In this document: piece after piece, positions 6,175 through 34,951 of the stretch
How positions within the stretch are numbered: the first letter of the stretch is position 1
How the letters are laid out: each line of letters begins with the position of its first letter
Virus record (IMG/VR): IMGVR_UViG_3300032213_001453
Source of the DNA: an uncultured virus (IMG/VR IMGVR_UViG_3300032213_001453)
Lineage: Duplodnaviria; Heunggongvirae; Uroviricota; Caudoviricetes
Strand: one strand, 5' to 3'
DNA: 34,951 nt
Notes under the pieces: model-generated
Database searches by the model: none
Told to the model about the DNA's origin: nothing
What the model saw: the letters and a program-made list of their open reading frames with translations, nothing else
Position numbers and translations under genes: made by a program

Positions 6175-6702
6175 ATGATAGTACTTGACATCGACGGTGT
6201 TGTAGCAGACTTTTTTGAAGAGTTGAAGATTACTCTCAATAAGTGTGGACATGATTTTAAACATTGGATGGAGTGGCCTAGTTATGATTGGGAAGATATC
6301 TGCCCTGATATTCCTAGAGATACTCTGAATTCTTTTTTGATTGATCCACTTGTTGTTAAAAACTCTAAAGCTTTTGGTGATGCATGGCATTGGGTCAATC
6401 ACTATAGCTCTAGATATGATGTCATGTATTTGACGGCAAGAGATATCAGCCTTAGTCCTGAGACTTGGGATTGGTTCTTTGAGTGGGATATCCCTGCAGA
6501 CTTTGTGGTTTTTGAGAAAAACAAGCCGGAGTTTGTTAGTCAGATCGAAGTGAGCGTTTATGTTGACGATCATCCTGATATGGCTCAGGGTGCTAAGGAT
6601 CTTGGAGTAAACGCTTTTCTTCTCAATCGCCCTTACAATATTAACGCTGATGTTGATCCTAGTATCAGAATTGATTCTTTGTGGGAAATCGAATTGCCAT
6701 GA
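6175..6702 (+). CDS. HAD-superfamily 5'(3')-deoxyribonucleotidase-like phosphatase
   Basis: Motif I LDIDGVVADF, motif II YLTAR, motif IV YVDDHP, and a C-terminal RPYN. Confidence 0.85.
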   Translation: MIVLDIDGVVADFFEELKITLNKCGHDFKHWMEWPSYDWEDICPDIPRDTLNSFLIDPLVVKNSKAFGDAWHWVNHYSSRYDVMYLTARDISLSPETWDWFFEWDIPADFVVFEKNKPEFVSQIEVSVYVDDHPDMAQGAKDLGVNAFLLNRPYNINADVDPSIRIDSLWEIELP

Positions 6703-15079: not shown

Positions 15080-16081
15080 ATGACTGCTACTCTTGCTCCT
15101 GATCTTTCTTTCGAAGAAAAACTTCGAAATAGATCTGAGAACACTCAGCACCTTGATTTTCAGGTAGGAGATCTTTCCTTTAACGCTGGCAAACGTCCAA
15201 GCGTTAGTATTTCCGGGGAAGATTATTTTCTTACCGATGGGTCTTTTCGGCAGATTGCCGAGGAGATGAAGATTCCAGTTCCTTATGCTAGACGCATTCC
15301 TGATGATCTTCTTTCTTATACTGTGAATTATTTTATCAATAATAATAGATCGAATCATATTGCCGCTCTTTCTGAGGACGGACATATTCGCTCTTTTATG
15401 AAGACTAATACTCCTTATGTTTCGAACACTGAGATGTTTGATGCTGTTCTTGAGGCAACTGGTGGCGATTATGATCTTCGTTATGCGAAGATGAGCGATA
15501 CCATTACTTCTTTTTCAATCCTTCCATCAAGTTATCGTGAGTCAGTTGATGGCTCAAATCTTTTTGGTGGCGTTAAGGTTGTTTTCTCAGATGCTTGGGA
15601 TAGGCATCCTTCGATTGATTCTTACATTTGGCGTGAACTTTGCTCCAATGGAATGATCAATGAACTTGAGAGTCGCAAGTTCCGTGTCGCTGGTTCATCG
15701 CACGACGATGTTCTTCGTCAGATTAGAGATTTCTCTGTTATTGCCATTGAGAAGCTGCCTGATCTATTTGATAACTTCAATAAGCTCCTTGAGGAAGAAG
15801 TCAAGGATTATGTGAAGATTATCCGCCAAGTTGTTCTTGAGTATAAGCTTCCCAATAAGGTTCAGACTCGCCTGCTTTTTTGGGCTGTGAACCCTGATTT
15901 CCTTGCGACTATCAGCAATGATAAGATTGAGAATATGCATGATGTTGTCAATCTTATTACTTATACCGGAAGTCATGATGGAGAACTCAGTCAGGATATG
16001 CGTGAGCGTCTCCTTCAGATCGGCGGAAATCTTACGCTGAACCATCAGGAACGCTGCAATTCTTGTGGAAGTTCTTACTGA
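15080..16081 (+). CDS. DUF932-like domain protein
   Basis: GGVKVVFSD...IWRELCSNGMI resembles the DUF932 RxxCxNG motif; C-terminal CNSCG; GAAAGGA SD supports ATG 15080. Confidence 0.6.
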   Translation: MTATLAPDLSFEEKLRNRSENTQHLDFQVGDLSFNAGKRPSVSISGEDYFLTDGSFRQIAEEMKIPVPYARRIPDDLLSYTVNYFINNNRSNHIAALSEDGHIRSFMKTNTPYVSNTEMFDAVLEATGGDYDLRYAKMSDTITSFSILPSSYRESVDGSNLFGGVKVVFSDAWDRHPSIDSYIWRELCSNGMINELESRKFRVAGSSHDDVLRQIRDFSVIAIEKLPDLFDNFNKLLEEEVKDYVKIIRQVVLEYKLPNKVQTRLLFWAVNPDFLATISNDKIENMHDVVNLITYTGSHDGELSQDMRERLLQIGGNLTLNHQERCNSCGSSY

Positions 16082-16113
16082 AATACGTTTGTTTCTCCTT
16101 TTTATCCGATACA

Positions 16114-16148
16114 ATGTGCGTGCGGGGCAGAAACCCCGCACGCATACA
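16114..16148 (+). terminator. Strong intergenic hairpin (no U tract)
   Basis: TGCGTGCGGGG-CAGAAA-CCCCGCACGCA perfect 11-bp stem. Confidence 0.55.
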
Positions 16149-16162
16149 TCGACAAAAGATAG

Positions 16163-16501
16163 GTGAGTATGTCTAACACAAGTAAAGATGCGTTCAAGAT
16201 TGTGGAGAAAGAACTAATCAAGTTCGGTTCCTATGAGAACGCAAAGAAGATTCTTTCTAAGTACATGATCGGGTCATCTTATGATCAAGAGATGGTAGAG
16301 AAGATCCTCGTCATTCTAGTTGCCGAATTTAGACGAGAGATTGAACGACTTAATGGCAATCTTCCTGAGGATGATGCTGAGGCTGCTCTTGTGATTGAGC
16401 GTAAGGCTTCAAGCAAACCTCGCCAAAAGAAGGGCAGTAGTAAGATTGTAATTGAGTCTGCCGGTGATATTGATATTGATGACTTAGAAGAATCTGATTA
16501 A
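16163..16501 (+). CDS. Hypothetical protein
   Basis: 112-aa ORF with an acidic tail; start GTG 16163 or ATG 16169. Confidence 0.7.
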   Translation: MSMSNTSKDAFKIVEKELIKFGSYENAKKILSKYMIGSSYDQEMVEKILVILVAEFRREIERLNGNLPEDDAEAALVIERKASSKPRQKKGSSKIVIESAGDIDIDDLEESD

Positions 16502-16505
16502 TATA

Positions 16506-16514
16506 TGGTATAAT
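16506..16514 (+). promoter_or_regulatory. Extended -10 promoter, probably yielding a leaderless mRNA
   Basis: TGg-TATAAT followed 6 nt later by ATG 16521, with no SD. Confidence 0.65.
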
Positions 16515-16520
16515 TAGCAT

Positions 16521-17126
16521 ATGTCCGAAGAACTTGAAAAAGTTGAAACTATTTTTGATAAAGCCAAGAAGGTTGAGCAAGTAGGTCTGCTCAGCCTTAA
16601 GGGTTATTCTGTCTCCGATATAGCGGAACTTGAACAGGTATCTCCAAATACCGTTAGAGATTACGTTACTCAATACAAGACTTTCTTAGAGGGTCGTGCT
16701 GAAGATGATCCGTACTTTCTGGAGAAGGTCCAGTTTAATACGATTAAGGCTTTGGCTGAGTTTGATGAGATTTCAAAAGAATCTTGGGAGACTGTCGAAA
16801 TAGCTACAAGAGAGGGTATGGTTTCTGCAAGAAATCAGGCTCTTAAGTTGTGTCTGGATATTGCTACGAAGAAAGCCCAGCTTCATCAGTTGATGGGAGG
16901 AACAAAGAGTGATGGCGAATATATCGCCCGAATGCAGAAGGCCGAAACTGTAAACCAAATTATCTCTAAGGTTATCAAAGACATTGTTGCTGATTGTGAT
17001 GCTTGTAAGCCGAAGGCTCGCATTGCTTTGCAGGAGGCGTTCAATATGATGAATACCGAGGGCTATAGCTCTCCCCAAGAAGCCAGCGATGATCTCAACA
17101 TTGAAGATGCAGAAGTCGTGGAATAG
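16521..17126 (+). CDS. Probable terminase small subunit (N-terminal HTH + helical domain)
   Basis: LKGYSVSDIAELEQVSPNTVRDY HTH; lies just upstream of the large subunit. Confidence 0.6.
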   Translation: MSEELEKVETIFDKAKKVEQVGLLSLKGYSVSDIAELEQVSPNTVRDYVTQYKTFLEGRAEDDPYFLEKVQFNTIKALAEFDEISKESWETVEIATREGMVSARNQALKLCLDIATKKAQLHQLMGGTKSDGEYIARMQKAETVNQIISKVIKDIVADCDACKPKARIALQEAFNMMNTEGYSSPQEASDDLNIEDAEVVE

Positions 17127-17421
17127 ATCGTTCCCTAGACGATCAACTGTCGCTTGGGTAGTGCTGGCATTGTATATTCTTATATACGATGTAATCGCAA
17201 TGATCTTAAACGATAGAAATAAATCTAGGGGGTCCAATGTTAAGTACGAAACATTTTCTGATGGTTGTTGGAGAGGTGTGTATCATCCTGTTGCTCGCTG
17301 GCCTATTTGGGCTTGTATTTTGATTATAGTTAAGCACCTTGCTGCTCCAAATTTTTTGCACGAATACGATCCTTTGAAGATCGTTGGCAAGACTATTAGA
17401 TTTATTAGGAAGAGGTTATAG
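17107..17421 (+). CDS. Small membrane protein (start uncertain)
   Basis: Two hydrophobic segments (VAWVVLALYILIYDVIAMIL; WPIWACILIIV) and a basic C-terminus. Confidence 0.65.
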   Translation: MQKSWNRSFPRRSTVAWVVLALYILIYDVIAMILNDRNKSRGSNVKYETFSDGCWRGVYHPVARWPIWACILIIVKHLAAPNFLHEYDPLKIVGKTIRFIRKRL

Positions 17422-17422
17422 G

Positions 17423-19213
17423 ATGGGCGAAGATTTTTATGGTGCCAATTTAGACTTTGATGATTTTGATAGACTTTTAAAGAATGAAGATCTAAATGAA
17501 GAGCCTGTTCCTATTCAGAGATTTGTGACTGATAAGAAGTATCTTGGTCTTCCTCCGCTTAGCGATATTCAGCTTGAAATCGCAAGGCACATTACTCAGA
17601 TTTTTAAGCCGGAAACTCTCTCAATGCTAATGGGGGAGCAAGAGGGCATCGATTACTACAATAGGTATACTGTCAATGAAGTAATTTGTCAGTTAGGAAA
17701 GGGATCTGGTAAGGATCACGTTTCCAGAGTTTCTCTCGCTTACATTAGTTACCTTCTTCATTGTCTTCGTGATCCTCTTGAGTATTTCGGAAAAGCCTCT
17801 GGTGTTTATATCGACTTGGTTAACTTGGCTGTAAACGCCAAGCAGGCTCAGCAGGTTTTCTTTGATCCTTTGAAAAACCTTTTGCTCGCTTCCCCTTGGG
17901 CTAATGATGTCGGCTTTGAGCCGCGTGTTCAAGAAATCTTTTGGTTTGATCGTCCTGTTCGAATGTTCTCCGGCCACTCTGAGGCGGAAGGCTGGGAGGG
18001 TTATGAAGTTCTGACAGTTGTGCTTGATGAGATCTCTGCTTTCAAAACAGACGGAGAACTTAAGGGGCAACTTAGAAATAAAGGATCTGCCTCCGAGATT
18101 TACGAGATGGCTAGAGCTTCAATTACTTCACGCTTTCCAAGTGTCGGAAAGGTTGTTCTTCTTTCTTTCCCAAGATTCAGGGGAGACTTCATTCAGCAGA
18201 GATATAAGTCTGTTATTGACGACTTAGTTGAGCAGGGTGGTATCGTACTTGATGAGAAGATGGGCAACCGTGGAGGCTATCGTGAGGCCCAGTCTTGGGC
18301 GCTTAAGGCTTCGACGTGGGAAGTCAATCCCACCCGCCATAAAGAGGAGTTTGAGAACGAGTTCAGGCGCGATCCTATCATGGCTCGCGCTAGGTTCATG
18401 TGCGAACCCCCAGAGATGGTGGACGCCTACTTCAGAGATCCGGAATCTGTTCGTGCTGCGTTTAGATACAAGCAGACTCCCGTCGATGAAGAAGGCAGAT
18501 TTGCTGAGTGGTTTTTGGGTAGTGATACTCATGCGAGATATATCCATGTTGATCTTGGTCTTAAACGAGATCGTGCTGCTGTTTGCATGGTTCATTCGCC
18601 GGGGTTTAAGCAGATCAAAACTCTTGGCGGTGTAGAAAATCTTCCTATCATTGAAATGGATTATATCCAGTCTTGGAAGGCAGAAGATAACTCCGAAATT
18701 CCTTTTGCAGCGATTAGAACAACGATTGCCGAATTGACTAGGCGCTTTACTGTTGTATCGGTTACTTTCGATCAATGGAACAGTGCTGATATGATTCAGT
18801 CTCTTAGATCTCTTGGTATCAATGCAGATCTCCATACAGTAGCGAAAAAGGATTACGATACTTTATCTACTGCTATCTATGATGGAAGATTGCGTGGCTA
18901 TTGGAATGATATCTTGGTGGAAGATGAGCTTCTTAAACTTAAGCTTATCAATAACACTAAGGTTGACCATCCGACAACTGGCTCCAAGGATTTGGCTGAC
19001 TCAGTTGCTGGCGCTACGTTTATGTGCATTTCTAATATGTCATCAGATTTTGAGATTGATATTGAAATATTAGATGCTGTCGATTTCACCACTCTTGAAG
19101 GTGAAGAAGCAGATGGCGCTATCAAGAGAACTTTGACATCCAAGGGTGTAATTGAAACAGAAAAACCAAAAGAACTGCCAGATGATATTAAAAGCTGGCT
19201 TGAGATTATCTAG
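17423..19213 (+). CDS. terL: Terminase large subunit
   Basis: LSDIQ Q-motif, Walker A GKGSGKD, Walker B VVLDE, LLSFP coupling motif, nuclease IHVDLG / TFDQW / KVDHP..GSKDLADS. Confidence 0.92.
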   Translation: MGEDFYGANLDFDDFDRLLKNEDLNEEPVPIQRFVTDKKYLGLPPLSDIQLEIARHITQIFKPETLSMLMGEQEGIDYYNRYTVNEVICQLGKGSGKDHVSRVSLAYISYLLHCLRDPLEYFGKASGVYIDLVNLAVNAKQAQQVFFDPLKNLLLASPWANDVGFEPRVQEIFWFDRPVRMFSGHSEAEGWEGYEVLTVVLDEISAFKTDGELKGQLRNKGSASEIYEMARASITSRFPSVGKVVLLSFPRFRGDFIQQRYKSVIDDLVEQGGIVLDEKMGNRGGYREAQSWALKASTWEVNPTRHKEEFENEFRRDPIMARARFMCEPPEMVDAYFRDPESVRAAFRYKQTPVDEEGRFAEWFLGSDTHARYIHVDLGLKRDRAAVCMVHSPGFKQIKTLGGVENLPIIEMDYIQSWKAEDNSEIPFAAIRTTIAELTRRFTVVSVTFDQWNSADMIQSLRSLGINADLHTVAKKDYDTLSTAIYDGRLRGYWNDILVEDELLKLKLINNTKVDHPTTGSKDLADSVAGATFMCISNMSSDFEIDIEILDAVDFTTLEGEEADGAIKRTLTSKGVIETEKPKELPDDIKSWLEII

Positions 19214-19221
19214 GAGATAAT

Positions 19222-19500
19222 TTGAATATTAGTGATCTTAATAAAGCCCTTTGCAGAAAGAGGGGCATGAATACTTCGTTGTTCTTTGAGGACTTCGAAC
19301 AGATGACTCCGAAGAAGAAGTTTGAAATCATCTCTATCTGTGAGAGGTGCGAAGTAAAGAATGAGTGTAGGGAAGCAGGCGCTGCTCAGAAGGACGGTTA
19401 TGGCCTTTGGGGAGGAGTCTTCTTTAAGAAGGGTCGTATCCTTAAGACAAATTCGTCTCGCAGAACATCACCAAAAGCCTCTCCAAATAGCGTCAGATAA
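19222..19500 (+). CDS. whiB: WhiB-family transcription factor
   Basis: ALC...LFF...ICERCEVKNEC...YGLWGG; GGAG SD before TTG. Confidence 0.9.
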   Translation: MNISDLNKALCRKRGMNTSLFFEDFEQMTPKKKFEIISICERCEVKNECREAGAAQKDGYGLWGGVFFKKGRILKTNSSRRTSPKASPNSVR

Positions 19501-19655
19501 ATTTTGCTGTTAGATTTGTTGAATAGAAAAAAATCCTGATTGACGTAGGTTTCGCCTGATGGTCCGCTATACTGATCCCAGAGGCACCCGGGCCTGCAAA
19601 ACGTCCCTCATAAAGCCTCTACCAAATAAAAATTCCGATATAAATAGGAGATATA

Positions 19656-20003
19656 ATGCTTAATATTGAAGTCACTGATTCCCTTCCTACAGTTCGTCGT
19701 GGTGGAGGTCGTCCTTCTGAAGAGCGTAAGCAGATTCAGGAAGCGCTTAAGAGTGGTGAAGTTCAGGTTGTTAAGAACATTGAAGCCGGTAATAAGTACA
19801 ATGCACTTCAGCAGCGTATTCGTCAGGCTGCACTTCAGATGGGTCTGAAGGTTAAGATTGTTTATCGCAAGCATGACGACAATGATGCTATTGGAGATCT
19901 TTACTTCCACGGATACTCCGATGTTGAGGTTGAGGTTATTGAGGAAAACAAGATTGCGAAGACTTCGGTTCGTCGCAATGTTAAGGATAAGGTCACTGCT
20001 TGA
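19656..20003 (+). CDS. Small protein, possible nucleic-acid binder
   Basis: AGGAG SD; RRGGGRP motif; flanked by a TATACT element (19568) and a terminator-like hairpin. Confidence 0.7.
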   Translation: MLNIEVTDSLPTVRRGGGRPSEERKQIQEALKSGEVQVVKNIEAGNKYNALQQRIRQAALQMGLKVKIVYRKHDDNDAIGDLYFHGYSDVEVEVIEENKIAKTSVRRNVKDKVTA

Positions 20004-20191
20004 ATGCTTTAGCAGATGGCAAGGAGAAGCTCCCTGCAGATTTCTGCAGGGAGCTTTTTCTTCATATTGATAGTTTTCTTGCTTCAATTAGTCAGCAAAG
20101 TTTGGTTGATAGCAATCAGGCTCAAGATTTTTGTCTTGATCTTCGACTTGTTGTCAAAGATTACGAAAATGAGGATGATATAGATGTCTAA
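20000..20191 (+). CDS. Hypothetical protein
   Basis: TTGA-coupled 63-aa ORF overlapping the next start. Confidence 0.5.
   Translation: MNALADGKEKLPADFCRELFLHIDSFLASISQQSLVDSNQAQDFCLDLRLVVKDYENEDDIDV
20027..20063 (+). terminator. Intrinsic terminator-like hairpin inside the next ORF
   Basis: AAGCTCCCTGCAG-ATTT-CTGCAGGGAGCTT perfect 13-bp stem followed by TTTCTTC. Confidence 0.65.
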
Positions 20192-20489
20192 TATGTCAAA
20201 TATTGATGCGAATATTCAGATGGTCAGGGAGCAGCTGAGTGGCCTTGTTGGCTGCACAATTGTTCAGGTAGACGCTAGTTCTGCTACTGAGACTGGATCT
20301 GACGCTGTTTGGCCTGTTATTTTAGTCAAAGATGCGAATGATAACATTTTTCAGCTTGAGATCGCTTGTGATGCCGAAGGCAATGGACCCGGGCATATTT
20401 TTCTGGGCCTTATAAGCGGTAAAAATTTCGATGACTACACCCCGATTTCCAACAAAAAAAGCTGGGAATTGCTTTGGAATGGATTGTAG
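20184..20489 (+). CDS. Hypothetical protein
   Basis: GAGGA SD; LVGCTI...DAEGNGPG motif. Confidence 0.7.
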   Translation: MSNMSNIDANIQMVREQLSGLVGCTIVQVDASSATETGSDAVWPVILVKDANDNIFQLEIACDAEGNGPGHIFLGLISGKNFDDYTPISNKKSWELLWNGL

Positions 20490-20492
20490 ACT

Positions 20493-20520
20493 TTGAAAAT
20501 AACCCATTATTTGATATAAT
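20493..20520 (+). promoter_or_regulatory. Sigma70/SigA-type promoter
   Basis: TTGAAA-N16-TATAAT with an extended -10 (TGa-TATAAT); GAGGT SD downstream. Confidence 0.7.
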
Positions 20521-20540
20521 GGTACACCGAGGTATTCGAT

Positions 20541-20765
20541 ATGTGGAAAAATCAGATTGAGTACTTCGATGAGCTTGTTGAGAAACAAGTAGAAGTAAAA
20601 ATAAATCTCCTCCATACAAACAAGGTATACATAGGGTATATACGAGCTATCTGTAGTGATGGCGTATTTGTAACTAGGCAGACGGGCTTTAGATATAGTG
20701 TCGATATCCGGGAAGTTGTTTATATCCCTTATAAAGCCATATCCTGCGTAGAGAGAGGACTGTAG
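20541..20765 (+). CDS. Hfq/Sm-like fold protein
   Basis: Q..YFDEL..KQVEVKINL.....IGYI......VFV ... VYIPYKAISCV aligns by eye with the Hfq helix, Sm1 and Sm2 (VYKHAISTV). Confidence 0.55.
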   Translation: MWKNQIEYFDELVEKQVEVKINLLHTNKVYIGYIRAICSDGVFVTRQTGFRYSVDIREVVYIPYKAISCVERGL

Positions 20766-20777
20766 AGATGAGGTTAT

Positions 20778-21314
20778 ATGAATGTTTTTACGAAGTCTAT
20801 GATTGTAGTTGCAATTTCTGTAGTTATTGCTATTAGTGCAATTGCTACAACTGTTGCTTCTGCTGGTACGGGAAGTTTTAGTAATGATTATAGCATTGTT
20901 TTTGTAGAAGAAGTTTCGCCGGTAGTTGTGGAAGAAGTTACTACTACTACAACTATTGATTTAAGTTGGTTGAATACTACTACGACAACGGTTTATGTAG
21001 CTCCAGTTGTTGTAGTAGAAGCTCCTCCTGTTATTGAGACTTCAGTTAGCTCTGATGGTTCAGTTTGGGATGCTATCGCGCAGTGTGAGTCTGGCGGTAA
21101 TTGGGCAATTAATACGGGTAACGGGTTTGGTGGTGGACTTCAGTTCATGCATCAACGTAGTTATTCGACGTGGCTTTCTTTTGGTGGTGGAGAGTTTTCT
21201 CCAAATCCTTGGGAAGCTTCTAGAGAGCAGCAAATAATAGTCGCTGAGAAAGTTTTGGCTTCTTCCGGTTGGGGTGCTTGGCCGGGTTGTTCTAGTAAGT
21301 TAGGTCTGCGTTAG
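20778..21314 (+). CDS. rpf: Resuscitation-promoting factor (Rpf)-type lytic transglycosylase, secreted
   Basis: N-terminal signal peptide/TM, T/V/E/P-rich linker, then [28 protein letters not shown]...TW...GG...ASREQQI.VAEKVL...GWGAWPGC. Confidence 0.93.
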
Positions 21315-21353
21315 ATCTTTCTTTAAAGTAAAACTGAATACTTTTTCAAAAAG

Positions 21354-21385
21354 AATGGAGGCTCAATTAGAGCCTCCATTTTTTT
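21354..21385 (+). terminator. Intrinsic terminator (possibly bidirectional)
   Basis: AATGGAGGCTC-AATTA-GAGCCTCCATT with a T run after and an A run before. Confidence 0.85.
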
Positions 21386-21397
21386 GTATTAAATTCA

Positions 21398-21564
21398 AGC
21401 CTAATTATGTACCTAATTTGCTGGGCGCATGATTAGGTAGATAATTATGTTCGCCCGAAAATCTTTTCGAAACATAAATCGAAACCCTAATCAAGAACTT
21501 TGTGAGTGCCGGTTAAATATCTATCTCAGACAGGTAACGACTGCTAAGATAGTATCAGTTAATC
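21398..21564 (+). repeat. Conserved intergenic element, copy 1 (promoter/regulatory or structured RNA)
   Basis: Four colinear blocks shared with 26426-26576; contains TGc-TAAGAT (21542-21550). Confidence 0.8.
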
Positions 21565-21601
21565 GAAACAGTTTATCTGACCTTATATAAGGAGCGTTTA
21601 G

Positions 21602-22975
21602 ATGTCGTACATTAGAATTGCGAATAAGGCAGACGATGTTAATCGTTTGTTTTTGGAAAAGTTAGGTCTTTCGACAAAGCGTGAGAATGAGAATACAATT
21701 GGCCAATTTGGTTCGGGTTCTAAATTCGCTCCAATTGCTGCTTTGCGTAATGGTTGGGATTGGATTAATGTTGGCCGAGATAGTCTTGGCGAGTATAAAA
21801 TGCAGTATGTTGTTCAGGATGAGGGTGGTATTGAGTGTGTCTATTATTTGTATAATGATGAGGTATTGAAACCTTCTTCTTTTACTGTTGATGCCGGTGT
21901 TCTTTCTTGGGATTCTGAGTTTCAGATTTTTCGTGAAGCTTTTTGCAATGCTTTGGATGAGTTCACTGATAGCGGCAAAGAGTATTCGATTGAAGTTGTT
22001 GATGAGGTAAAGTTCGTTGATGGAGAGTTTGCTGTTTATCTGAGTGCAGTCAAGCCTCTGCTTGATATTATCGAAGACTTTGATAAGTATTTCTCTATCA
22101 AGCGTACTCCGCTTTCCAGCAATGATTATTCTGGAAAGATTTTCAAGTCCTTTGATCATGAGCCTAATTTCTACTACAAGGGTGTTCTTGTTCATTCAGA
22201 ATCAAGTTCTGATCTTTCAATCTTTGATTATGAGTTCAATAACATTACGCTTAACGAAGAACGTAGAGTTCGTAATACTTATGAACTTGGTACTAAGGTT
22301 ACGTCAATGTTGTATCAGCTTAATGGTAATGATGCTAATCATGTTGATATTGCAAAGCAGATGATTTATTGTGCAAATAAGAAGCGCTGGGAGTGGAGTA
22401 TTCCTTCCTACAATATTGAATCATGGTTTGGCAATAAGACTGATAGTGCATTTCTTTCAGCTTGGAATGAGATTCATGGTGACGCTATTGCTGTAAGTTC
22501 AGATTTGATGCGGTTTAAGACACAGTTTTCTATTCGCAATCAGTCTGTTGTGGAAATCAAGAGTGATTATTTGTATAAGATTCTTGGTCGCTGTGGTGTT
22601 CCGACTGCGGAAGATATTCTTGGTGATGAAGTTGAGTATGAGTTTATGACTCTTACTGGTAAGAATCGTAATCTGTATGAAGAGTCTCTTGATATGGTTA
22701 AGTCTTTTCTTCCTGACTATGATTTCCATGTTAGGGATACTAAGTTCTTTGTCCCTCAGGGTGAACAAGATTCTGTTCTTGGTGTTGCAAATATGCAAAC
22801 ATCCAATGTTTATATCTCTATCAATTCCTTTAGAGATCAGAGTACGTTGATTGGCACTCTTGTTCATGAATACGATCATCTTAAGAGTAAGCTTCATGAT
22901 GATGATCTCGGTTTTAGAGCAGAAGCTGACAATCATATCGCCAATCTTATTCTTAAGTTGAATGGGAAAGGATGA
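21602..22975 (+). CDS. GHKL/HATPase-like protein with permuted motif order and a C-terminal HEXXH motif
   Basis: LGLSTKR...IGQFGSGSK (aa 21-41), FREAFCNALDE (aa 110-120), and TLVHEYDH near the C-terminus; AAGGAG SD. Confidence 0.7.
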   Translation: MSYIRIANKADDVNRLFLEKLGLSTKRENENTIGQFGSGSKFAPIAALRNGWDWINVGRDSLGEYKMQYVVQDEGGIECVYYLYNDEVLKPSSFTVDAGVLSWDSEFQIFREAFCNALDEFTDSGKEYSIEVVDEVKFVDGEFAVYLSAVKPLLDIIEDFDKYFSIKRTPLSSNDYSGKIFKSFDHEPNFYYKGVLVHSESSSDLSIFDYEFNNITLNEERRVRNTYELGTKVTSMLYQLNGNDANHVDIAKQMIYCANKKRWEWSIPSYNIESWFGNKTDSAFLSAWNEIHGDAIAVSSDLMRFKTQFSIRNQSVVEIKSDYLYKILGRCGVPTAEDILGDEVEYEFMTLTGKNRNLYEESLDMVKSFLPDYDFHVRDTKFFVPQGEQDSVLGVANMQTSNVYISINSFRDQSTLIGTLVHEYDHLKSKLHDDDLGFRAEADNHIANLILKLNGKG

Positions 22976-23014
22976 TGCTTAGTGCTACAATAATGTAGAG
23001 ACGAGGGAGATTAT

Positions 23015-23155
23015 GTGTATTTTTCTGACTTTATCCGTTTTACAATTTTTGTGTTATTGGTTGCTTTCTTTGGAATGGCGATCTTCAGCGTATTTGGAAT
23101 TTTCCTGATCCTGTTTATTGCTGCTCCAATTATCTTTTTTATTGCTCTATTGTGA
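23015..23155 (+). CDS. 46-aa hydrophobic membrane peptide (not in ORF track)
   Basis: GAGGGAG SD, GTG start, MYFSDFIRFTIFVLLVAFFGMAIFSVFGIFLILFIAAPIIFFIALL; TGc-TACAAT at 22983. Confidence 0.6.
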   Translation: MYFSDFIRFTIFVLLVAFFGMAIFSVFGIFLILFIAAPIIFFIALL

Positions 23156-23162
23156 GGTTAAA

Positions 23163-23459
23163 GTGGCAAATGAAAATTATTATGTAGTAGAGGCTAGAGT
23201 TGCAGTTCAAATTACTGAAGCTCTTTCTGTAGATGAAGCTGCTAGGAAAGCGGCAAGGATTATTGAAAATCAGTATGGAGTTAATCTTAGCAATTGGTAT
23301 CTTCGTGTTTTCGAGTATGGTGCCGGTGAAGATATAGGTCCTATTGCTGAGTATTTTTCTAATCCTTCCGGTTCTAAGTTTCGTAAGATTGATAAGAATA
23401 TCGAACAACATGAGGAGTTGATTAAGAATGAGCAGTCAGATGGAGTTGGAAGAGCCTGA
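23163..23459 (+). CDS. Hypothetical protein
   Basis: GAGGT SD before GTG 23163. Confidence 0.7.
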   Translation: MANENYYVVEARVAVQITEALSVDEAARKAARIIENQYGVNLSNWYLRVFEYGAGEDIGPIAEYFSNPSGSKFRKIDKNIEQHEELIKNEQSDGVGRA

Positions 23460-23658
23460 TTTTGATGCTCCAGATTTTCTTGGAGAGTTTGAAGATAGGC
23501 CTAGTGATAAATATTGTGGCACTCCTTATTGTAGCGGTGCTAGTTATTTTGATCCTATGTGGCAAGGCTTTTGGGTTACTGGTTTTCAGTGCCCTTGTGG
23601 TTGTTCTGAAGAGCTTTATATTTGTGATGATCCAGATGAAGGTTGGTGGAAAGCATGA
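23428..23658 (+). CDS. Acidic Cys/Trp-rich hypothetical protein
   Basis: GAGGAG SD; CGTPYC...CPCGC. Confidence 0.65.
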   Translation: MSSQMELEEPDFDAPDFLGEFEDRPSDKYCGTPYCSGASYFDPMWQGFWVTGFQCPCGCSEELYICDDPDEGWWKA

Positions 23659-23891
23659 ATTATGAATTCAAAAGAATGCTTGCTAATAGTTACAAGCCTT
23701 TAGAATCTCCTCCCGACAATCCTTATGAAGATGTTGATCTTTGTTATCATGATTTTGATGATGAGGGTGAACATTGCATTGAGAATTGTGGACTTCCCAC
23801 TTGGGATGAGTATGATGCAGAAATGCAAGATCGGGCTGATGATTTTGCTATTGACCAATATATTAGCTCTAGAGAGGATTATAATTACTAA
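23655..23891 (+). CDS. Acidic hypothetical protein
   Basis: ATGA overlap; CYH...CIENC; very D/E-rich. Confidence 0.65.
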   Translation: MNYEFKRMLANSYKPLESPPDNPYEDVDLCYHDFDDEGEHCIENCGLPTWDEYDAEMQDRADDFAIDQYISSREDYNY

Positions 23892-24295
23892 TGACTGTTA
23901 TTGATATGTCGAATGACTATGTAGGAGAAATTATGACTACATATAAGATTACTGGTGAGATGGTTGACAATATTCTTTGCACAGCCCTTGAAGGTGGTAT
24001 TAATTATTGGTGTAGTTATGTAGAACCTCGTCATAATGTTTGGCCTGAGGGTGCTGGTTGTGCAAGTGAATGTCTTAGTCGTGGTTGTGATCTTTCTATC
24101 TTTGATTCTGAAGAAGAGGATGACAATGGTAATCCGGTTGAGTATGTTCTTACACTTTCAGCTTTTATTCATGGTGTTGAGAAAGCTGCAATTTGGGCTA
24201 GTATGAGTGTCAATGATTTTTATGAGAATCATGATGCTTCAGATGCAGATAATGTTATTCAGTTTGCTCTATTTGGAAGGCTTGTTTATGGATGA
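23891..24295 (+). CDS. Hypothetical phage protein
   Basis: ALEGGINYW...DASDADNVIQFALFG.LVYG; start could be the second ATG, after AGGAG. Confidence 0.75.
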   Translation: MTVIDMSNDYVGEIMTTYKITGEMVDNILCTALEGGINYWCSYVEPRHNVWPEGAGCASECLSRGCDLSIFDSEEEDDNGNPVEYVLTLSAFIHGVEKAAIWASMSVNDFYENHDASDADNVIQFALFGRLVYG

Positions 24296-34805: not shown

Positions 34806-34951
34806 CGCCTTATCCGGGCTTTTAAAAATGGGGCTTATAAGACCTATTTTAGAATTTCAAGTTTTTTATCTTTCACTCTATTACATCACTTCTATAGTGA
34901 ATGTATATAATGAAGTTATTATCTCTCATTCTAATCTAGAGATCTGAGATG

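Follow-up and report, generated by a model that had tools for sequence, protein, structure and literature searches.

The stretch of DNA analysed here, which we call the window, is a 34,951-bp piece of about 40% GC from the genome of an uncultured member of the Caudoviricetes (IMG/VR record IMGVR_UViG_3300032213_001453), with every long open reading frame (ORF) on the plus strand. It holds a gene, rpf, for a protein of the resuscitation-promoting factor (Rpf) family composed of an N-terminal export signal, a Thr-rich linker and a complete catalytic domain, and preceded by an ORF of 74 codons (ORF74) within what looks like a transcription unit of its own (Table 1). A first-pass annotation made from the letters alone had described a stand-alone, exported, complete Rpf in a phage, with a signal peptide, a T/V/E linker with poly-Thr runs, the catalytic Glu and both Cys, and all of these features were confirmed in the ORF. 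Taken together our results make it highly probable that this is an intact gene of the rpfB lineage kept under selection, whose exported product is encoded in a small non-structural cassette and is separate from the tape-measure protein and, as seen through a relative, from an Amidase_2 endolysin.

The Rpf protein and its export

The rpf product matches PF06737 with an E value of 8e-31 (107 bits against a cut-off of 27) over residues 93-171, covering 75 of the 77 profile positions, and phrog_29757 with an E value of 5.5e-34; a phmmer search of the PDB returned RpfB (3eo5, E 7.5e-27). The motif AQCESGG, which contains C103 and E104, aligns with AGCEAGG of Mycobacterium tuberculosis RpfB and C171 aligns with the second Cys, all three residues being invariant across 62 sequences. 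The Glu of the C-E-x-G-G motif is the catalytic residue in RpfB and Micrococcus luteus Rpf. Two highly conserved cysteine residues are likewise ascribed to the Rpf domain in an excerpt of PMC1084345. The AlphaFold2 model of the domain superposes on RpfB 4emn with a template-modelling (TM) score of 0.90-0.91 and a root-mean-square deviation of 1.7-1.8 Å (Foldseek), and the 15 Foldseek matches with E ≤ 0.001 were without exception RpfB, RpfC or RpfE, the last two at TM 0.76-0.88. A compact, helical, lysozyme-like fold is predicted from the model, whose confidence (predicted local distance difference test, pLDDT) is 71-88 over the domain but about 51 at residues 111-120. Relative to RpfB the phage domain carries a 4-residue insertion after QF, which falls in the middle part of the domain, where length is variable according to Ravagnani et al. 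(excerpt of PMC1084345). In its phage letter form the insertion was found in the window and 44 viral rows and in 0 of 80 cellular rows; as a phage-exclusive trait it was rejected, since insertions of the same length with other letters occur in two cellular loci, L076 and L078. Compared with six relatives the domain gave nonsynonymous and synonymous differences of pN 0.09-0.17 and pS 0.66-0.94 (five saturated); dN/dS was 0.087 against L013, the other five relatives being too saturated to compute. By these substitution patterns the domain is under purifying selection.

The signal peptide call is rule-based, from hydrophobicity and an AXA site. The h-region (residues 8-26) has a 19-residue Kyte-Doolittle mean of 2.61, the sole segment so hydrophobic in the protein, and the A27-S28-A29/G30 that follows agrees with the -3/-1 rule. 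The VASAG(T) cleavage site is retained in diverged homologue variants despite a different h-region, and residues 3-26 form a helix in the AlphaFold2 model. With its hydrophobic N-terminus and AXA site the protein is predicted to be secreted or membrane-associated.

The linker has two runs of five Thr (aa 55-59 and 67-71), a pLDDT of 40-56 and no secondary structure in the AlphaFold2 model, which was built on a 62-sequence alignment. Its length and sequence differ between homologues, except for a motif, TTTTT-IDLS[W/F]LN-TTTTT, which has no predicted structure and was counted in 45 of the 120 best protein matches, in 5/63 viral loci and in 0/80 cellular loci. Within one phage subfamily the conservation of this motif exceeds that of parts of the catalytic domain, and an analogous [D/E]Lxx[F/Y/W]L...polyT element is present in other phage Rpfs.

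A two-gene cassette

The sigma70-like promoter ahead of ORF74 agrees with the consensus at 11 of 12 positions, a score that no other site reaches on either strand of the window. A TG-extended -10 lies at an equal distance from the ORF74 start in three syntenic viral contigs (L013, L021 and L054); across the four syntenic genomes the promoter match is conserved in all and the terminator in three. The terminator begins 40 bases past the rpf stop and folds with a dG of -26.4 kcal/mol (z -5.15), none of 200 shuffles being as stable. A terminator scan listed this hairpin on the minus strand, and seven T residues come after its stem on the plus strand. Since A/T runs flank it on both sides, it is possibly bidirectional. 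L021 and L054 likewise have a hairpin with a T-run 3' of rpf; L013 lacks one, and three tandem near-copies of an element of ~33 bp stand in its place after the rpf stop. The window contains a single copy of this ~28-33-bp element (CCGGGCTTTTAAAAATGGGGCTTATAAG). From sequence features, then, we predict a small two-gene cassette in the order promoter, ORF74, rpf, terminator.

ORF74 is conserved in three syntenic relatives only (32-50% identity), has no Pfam or PHROG match and shows no hydrophobic segment. We considered it as an export chaperone resembling Gp1 of phage Ms6 and rejected the idea because ORF74 is not linked to rpf outside its own lineage. In having a promoter and a terminator, as judged by consensus and folding, the cassette resembles a moron. 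Its presence is not patchy, rpf occupying the same slot in all four syntenic genomes, and its composition is not deviant, the GC content at third codon positions (GC3) of the domain (0.34) lying within the 0.385 ± 0.054 of 16 other genes; GC3 of the whole gene is 0.25.

Table 1. Features of the rpf locus and of related genomes (window positions unless a contig is named)
Feature	Position	Strand	Remarks
rpf ORF	20778..21314	+	ATG start, TAG stop, 178 aa; GAGG Shine-Dalgarno about 6 nt 5'
Export signal, rpf codons 1-29	20778..20864	+	n-region with K6, h-region 8-26, ASA29/G30
V/E/T-rich linker, rpf codons 30-92	20865..21053	+	Predicted disordered
Linker motif TTTTT-IDLS[W/F]LN-TTTTT	20940..20990 (aa 55-71)	+	Nearly invariant in a 14-sequence alignment
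Rpf (PF06737) catalytic domain, codons 93-178 and stop	21054..21314	+	Pfam, phmmer, Foldseek
Domain residues	Cys103 21084-21086; catalytic Glu104 21087-21089; Cys171 21288-21290	+	
Sigma70-like promoter	20493..20520	+	TTGAAA-16 nt-TATAAT, TG before -10; gap 5' of ORF74
ORF74 (74 aa)	20541..20765	+	First cassette gene; stop 13 nt before rpf start
Intrinsic terminator	21354..21387		11-bp GC-rich palindromic stem, 5-nt loop, T7 on + strand
WhiB-like regulator	19222..19500	+	PF02467 E 5e-10, phrog_472 E 1e-12; 1.3 kb 5' of rpf, outside cassette
Probable small terminase	16521-17126		HTH, weak Terminase_5
DUF7427 protein	17089-17421		
TerL-like ORF	17384-19213		Best PHROG E 6e-6
457-aa protein	21602-22975	+	phrog_8203
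Element of ~28-33 bp	34814-34841		Single copy in window
Tandem near-copies of ~33-bp element	L013, about 6355-6470		Three, after rpf stop
rpf alleles	L021:6001-6528; L054:5857-6384		Without the 4-residue insertion
rpf and tyrosine-integrase region	L031:3880-5007; L031:5548-6315	-; +	86-kb viral contig
Protease fusion (~1000 aa)	L007:4387-7404 (G001); L152:8327-11518 (G002)	-; +	
Glycosyltransferase regions	G002 83,624-90,037 and 92,711-95,745 (L156:3624-10037, L156:12711-15745)		

The gene lies outside the virion genes and probably apart from the endolysin gene

The window encodes an exonuclease, DnaB, a primase, a single-stranded-DNA-binding protein, a dCMP deaminase, Pol III alpha, a RecA/UvsX-like protein, a Cas4-like exonuclease and RuvC. 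Around rpf the order is a helix-turn-helix (HTH) protein, a TerL-like ORF, the WhiB-like regulator, four small ORFs, rpf, a 457-aa protein and dozens of small ORFs. Virion genes are found in a second IMG/VR record, G001 (49,652 bp, CheckV 48%), part of which is the reverse complement of window positions 1-25012 at 99.996% identity. Its other 24.6 kb, lying 5' of the window, encodes tail-fibre-like genes, a protease fusion, a major capsid protein, an adaptor, a 1988-aa tape-measure protein and a 1708-aa tail protein. A relative, G002 (97,486 bp, CheckV 94%), matches 53 of the 74 window ORFs in a largely collinear arrangement, the window corresponding to its positions 32,360-65,816. G001 and G002 have one PF06737 match each, and the tape-measure proteins of both (1988 aa and 2159 aa) are without PF06737 and match PhageMin_Tail/TMP families only, so that rpf is a separate 178-aa ORF and not a domain embedded in the tape-measure protein. 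The carrier is an actinophage with a genome that we estimate at roughly 100 kb. A megablast search of window positions 17000-23000 against 50,697 phage records gave no match, and an exact 40-mer from the window end gave none in viral contigs. A search for sequencing runs listed six DNA entries from three studies and none of RNA.

In G002 the single PF06737 gene occupies the same slot as rpf of the window, and the endolysin is a different protein of 356 aa, with an Amidase_2 and two PG_binding_1 domains and without a signal peptide, encoded ~31 kb from rpf (domain scan of 104 of the 164 called ORFs). Because the amidase region maps beyond the window end, a separate endolysin for the window phage is inferred by synteny. 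A canonical endolysin gene also stands near rpf in two loci of unrelated lineages, L041 and L050, at a distance of 0.5-1 kb and on the other strand, which brings to three the lineages with rpf alongside a separate endolysin. Rpf is probably not the main lysin of the window phage, given the Amidase_2 and PG_binding_1 endolysin of the collinear, 94%-complete G002. Two possibilities that had been kept in mind at first, that Rpf is the sole endolysin or a virion protein, are thus made unlikely, the former by this relative and the latter by the position of the gene outside the structural module together with its export signal. Nor does the protein resemble a modular Lysin A, PF06737 being its only Pfam match above cut-off and the remainder signal and linker.

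Probable origin from a cellular rpfB-type gene

A tree was calculated from 129 distinct catalytic domains (53 viral, including that of the window, and 76 cellular) over 71 columns, with branch support from the Shimodaira-Hasegawa-like approximate likelihood-ratio test (SH-aLRT) only. The cellular loci were the best 80 of 510 confirmed candidates, and closer cellular relatives may therefore exist. The window belongs to a group of 29 rows, all of them viral (support 89), nested in a 36-row group (SH-aLRT 92) that consists of 34 viral rows and the cellular L076 and L078. L076 lies on contig JBILIB010000001.1 of an Acidimicrobiales metagenome-assembled genome, in a chromosomal metG-tatD-rpf-ksgA-ispE locus where its neighbours encode methionyl-tRNA synthetase, TatD, RrnaAD (KsgA) and a GHMP kinase. 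The same gene order surrounds rpfB in M. tuberculosis. The L076 protein has a transmembrane segment, a Thr/Pro/Val linker with poly-Thr runs and an Rpf domain with the insertion of equal length. The linkage of rpf to ksgA has been noted before (excerpt of PMC1084345).

The phage protein shares with L076 and the rpfB-locus Rpfs the Glu, the two Cys, an N-terminal membrane or export segment, a Thr-rich linker with poly-Thr and, with L076, the insertion after QF; its domain is 72% identical to that of L076 and 51-54% to RpfB in structure-based alignments. It differs in lying in a phage genome with AT-rich codons, in being without the DUF348 and G5 domains of mycobacterial RpfB (no Pfam match) and in bearing the linker motif, which no cellular locus has. 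Because the nearest cellular relative among the loci compared is a chromosomal gene with the same architecture, these sequence comparisons support the capture of the phage rpf from a host rpfB-locus gene, and the first-pass description of a host-like copy holds. A sample of 401 Actinomycetota genomes contained 147 with PF06737, a tally that includes nine flagged as unpublished (G179, G023, G244, G087, G231, G053, G125, G396 and G006).

Rpf alleles in the same slot are 86% (L013), 62% (L021) and 56% (L054) identical to that of the window, while TerL is 82-89% identical in these syntenic phages, which suggests allele replacement by recombination at the rpf slot. The L021 and L054 alleles are without the 4-residue insertion. 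The window domain is 82-90% identical to domains of unrelated phages of 50-61% GC; the window rpf codons are nonetheless fully AT-adapted.

Relatives in other phages

Of the 8,000 candidates scored in a protein search limited to lengths of 97-312 aa, 7,377 had E ≤ 1e-5, and a scan of IMG/VR viral contigs gave 64 loci with exported Rpf genes, on contigs of 35% to 69% GC. A hydrophobic segment precedes the domain in 53 of 54 distinct viral homologues, the exception ending at a contig edge. Lipoprotein-type signals, counted as lipobox-like solely when the Cys directly follows the h-region, are present in L050 (LSGC), L053 (VAGC), L051 (FASC), L055 (FTAC) and L033, L047 and L052 (LQSC). Gene contexts were scanned at 13 representative non-syntenic loci over 76 of 160 called ORFs (those of ~100 aa or more), with L015 and L049 left out. 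At nine of them rpf lies amid replication, recombination or nucleotide-metabolism genes: next to an exonuclease and a primase or helicase (L011, L025, L033, L051 and L056), next to replication initiators (L043 and L053), or next to genes for ribonucleotide reductase, ThyX and dCMP deaminase (L010 and L031, the latter with an integrase too). It stands beside DNA methyltransferases in L055 and directly after terminase genes in L034. WhiB genes lie within 3.5 kb 5' of rpf in the unrelated L011, L053 and L056 and in the window's own group. The 514-554-aa ORFs 5' of rpf in other lineages were considered as terminases and rejected, being exonucleases (phrog_466). In L031 a tyrosine-integrase gene lies ~0.5 kb from rpf, from which some rpf carriers would be temperate.

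A tblastn search of the 50,697 phage records gave matches in 199. Among the 40 matches listed, 18 fall under tape-measure genes, 16 under other genes, which belong to Rhodococcus, Streptomyces and Mycobacterium phages, 3 under other annotations and 3 in unannotated sequence. Because Trina gp44 (196 aa), BRock gp43 (188 aa) and prophi79-1 gp102 (102 aa, annotated RpfC) are annotated stand-alone copies, a stand-alone exported phage Rpf is a known kind of gene, and the rarity that the first-pass annotation had implied does not hold, the kind having its own family, phrog_29757, besides the 64 IMG/VR loci. These cultured-phage proteins resemble the window Rpf in being small, with a signal peptide and PF06737, outside a tape-measure protein and assigned to phrog_29757, with domain identities of 54-62%. 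They differ in that their domain follows straight after the signal and extensions, where present, lie at the C-terminus (a tail that is LysM-like in BRock, by sequence inspection, and Pro-rich in Trina), whereas the window Rpf has a 63-residue linker before its domain, and they lie in another part of the tree (BRock as L063). In the M. abscessus prophage prophi79-1 the gene stands between terminase and portal genes. In the full-text literature, with subscription-only papers outside the scope of the search, no work on the function of a phage Rpf of the stand-alone type came up, and the window copy adds to a known but functionally unstudied kind of gene.

Two other settings of the family in phages are documented. 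Excerpts of PMC1796659 report Rpf and other hydrolase motifs in mycobacteriophage tape-measure proteins, one of these motifs aiding infection of stationary-phase cells. The Rpf-like motif 1 of Barnyard and DrLupo belongs to the same domain family (50% identity over ~89 residues), but lies within a virion protein of more than 1000 aa without a signal peptide and with a proposed role in entry (PMC1796659, in part). The tape-measure protein had been named as the best-known place of phage Rpf motifs; this has to be widened, since according to part of PMC3314691 PF06737 is also the central domain of Lysin A endolysins in 8 Cluster A mycobacteriophages, for example Hammer gp13. Lysin A shares with the window Rpf the Pfam family and a phage use against host peptidoglycan, and differs in being a cytoplasmic three-domain protein (N-terminal peptidase, TG, C-terminal wall-binding domain), where the window Rpf has an export signal and no flanking domains.

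What the exported Rpf may do

Slow growth or dormancy is the condition of most bacteria in the environment, and the replication of phages in cells of this kind is generally poor. The only family of actinobacterial proteins with a known ability to reverse dormancy is Rpf. A phage-borne exported Rpf would be a direct viral handle on the growth state of the host, and its wide spread over viral contigs and several cultured Rhodococcus and Streptomyces phages makes the idea testable in culture. Driven by the sigma70-like promoter, transcription of the cassette by host RNA polymerase would not depend on that of the virion and lysis genes; the product would be exported by Sec and cleaved by signal peptidase after Ala29. 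The Thr-rich linker may hold the domain at the wall, possibly O-glycosylated like that of Corynebacterium glutamicum Rpf2, which is reportedly glycosylated by Pmt, and Glu104 would cut MurNAc-GlcNAc bonds outside the membrane of the infected cell. The purpose of this activity would be to keep or restore wall turnover and a growth-like state in a slow or dormant host and so to support phage replication; weakening of the wall could ease later lysis as a side benefit, and some spill-over onto neighbours is possible. For the gene as described, this mechanism and this purpose taken together, we put the chances at about even.

Waking of neighbours, wall remodelling and a secreted lysin, the three functions put forward at first, are indistinguishable by sequence, and it is the context that favours action on the producing cell rather than a signal that diffuses freely to its neighbours. 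A growth-state purpose is favoured because of the non-lysis gene contexts, the separate endolysins, the host-type linker, the lipoprotein forms and the literature on host Rpf. In excerpts of PMC10986025 four of six host rpf genes are up throughout infection by the Rhodococcus phage WC1, and the authors suggest a phage-driven prevention of dormancy; a conference report states that Rpf-deficient mycobacteria were infected less well (PMC12908700, in part). More tentatively, and with a probability well short of even, we speculate that actinophages repeatedly captured host Rpf and export it early, or from a prophage, as a wake-up device, with the linker motif as a docking or glycosylation module. 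Such a device would make a dormant or near-dormant cell, perhaps along with neighbouring cells, resume wall turnover and growth and enter productive infection, the motif placing the enzyme where the host's own Rpf acts. If this were correct, unproductive infections of non-growing cells would become productive.

Several points weigh against the picture of a captured growth-state factor. The tree has 71 columns and many unresolved forks, and no strongly supported branch holds the window. Early timing is suggested by position and a consensus promoter only, and promoter-like sites are not enriched in positions 16000-24000 (12 against 17.9 ± 4.0 in shuffles). No wall hydrolase besides Rpf was recognised in the ~59.6 kb of the window and G001, out of an estimated 100 kb; as the phage's own endolysin was not seen in this part, the Amidase_2 argument rests on one relative, and a holin was identified nowhere, including beside the G002 amidase. 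PF06737 domains serve as endolysin catalytic domains in the 8 Cluster A phages already mentioned (PMC3314691, in part). The same context also fits a role in lysis, because the secreted Tgl of Kayvirus, made from an early promoter, has been shown to be an extra lysin (PMC7150955, in part).

The main competitor to the growth-state purpose is an accessory exported lysin that would sit in the wall before lysis and speed or complete it with the cytoplasmic amidase endolysin, in the manner of Tgl; we hold this to be a serious alternative, though clearly less probable than an even chance. Excerpts of PMC7150955 describe Tgl as a transglycosylase-like protein with a signal peptide and an early host-type promoter that acts with the main endolysin LysK, and both it and the window Rpf are phage copies of a host-type secreted autolysin with an early-type promoter for host RNA polymerase, coexisting with a main endolysin. 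The likeness is an analogy only: Tgl is of the IsaA/SceD-type fold family, has a Firmicute host and lies a few genes from its endolysin. That PF06737 is a proven endolysin module in Lysin A, that rpf is close to a canonical endolysin gene in L041 and L050 and that a glycosidase would chemically complement an amidase also speak for a lytic role. On the other side, ~31 kb separate rpf from the endolysin in the window's lineage, the two genes lie on opposite strands in L041 and L050, the representative loci place rpf mostly amid replication and nucleotide metabolism, and the protein has kept a host-type linker with no phage wall-binding domain. If its role were only in extra lysis, Rpf would be an ordinary accessory lysin, yet one showing that phages have repeatedly taken a wall enzyme from their hosts and exchanged its alleles.

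A paracrine wake-up factor, in which the cleaved soluble Rpf diffuses away and resuscitates dormant neighbours as new hosts for the progeny, we consider improbable. Rpf is described as a secreted growth factor acting on dormant cells (excerpt of PMC1084345), and a cleavable non-lipoprotein signal is predicted for the window copy. Against this, a diffusible public good would repay its producer little in dilute plankton, at least seven phage homologues would stay attached by their lipobox-like signals to the cell that makes them, and the long Thr-rich linker is like that of wall-retained host forms.

A main endolysin of the SAR (signal-anchor-release) or secreted kind, triggered by membrane depolarisation, is slightly less probable still. 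Such a role would agree with the lack of another recognised wall hydrolase in the 59.6 kb, with the lack of a holin and with the SAR-like make-up of residues 7-30 (G/A/S/T 13 of 24). The h-region is however strongly hydrophobic (Kyte-Doolittle 2.61) and followed by the conserved ASA/G site, several homologues (L050, L053, L051, L055 and L033) use lipoprotein-type signals, and G002 has its amidase beyond the position of the window end. A SAR endolysin would be expected beside a holin or pinholin, but no small membrane protein adjoins rpf, ORF74 being without a hydrophobic segment. A virion-associated enzyme that opens the wall at DNA injection is very unlikely in spite of the tape-measure hydrolase motifs, one of them active in stationary-phase infection (PMC1796659, in part), and of one cultured-phage match under 'minor tail protein' (Jflix2 gp4), since a Sec-type signal would remove the protein from the cytoplasm where virions assemble, rpf has a promoter-terminator unit of its own away from the structural genes, and the protein has no tail-protein domain.

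Further features of the window and its relatives

The 457-aa protein encoded 3' of the cassette lies beside rpf in all syntenic relatives and has no Pfam or PDB match. Its look-alikes in the ESM atlas are GHKL-type (HATPase_c_3 / MPN635_N) ATP-binding proteins, mostly viral, which we regard as a lead only; it bears the motifs GQFGSGSKF near the N-terminus and HEYDH near the C-terminus. As a portal it was rejected on the grounds of these look-alikes and the missing Pfam and PDB matches, and neither the window nor G001 nor G002 has a recognised portal gene. The TerL-like ORF is a weak, very divergent large terminase; it is preceded by the probable small terminase and a DUF7427 protein, and the terminase genes sit between the replication genes and WhiB, distant from the capsid genes. 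Directly 5' of the major capsid gene is a fusion of ~1000 aa that joins a prohead-protease-like N-terminus to Hva1_TUDOR and ferritin-like (PF00210) domains. In G002, genes for a peptide deformylase and ThyX lie just 5' of the amidase gene, and 3' of it follow five GT2-type glycosyltransferases, a methyltransferase and a hexapeptide acetyltransferase and, further on, a GT4/GT1 glycosyltransferase and a B12-type ribonucleotide reductase.

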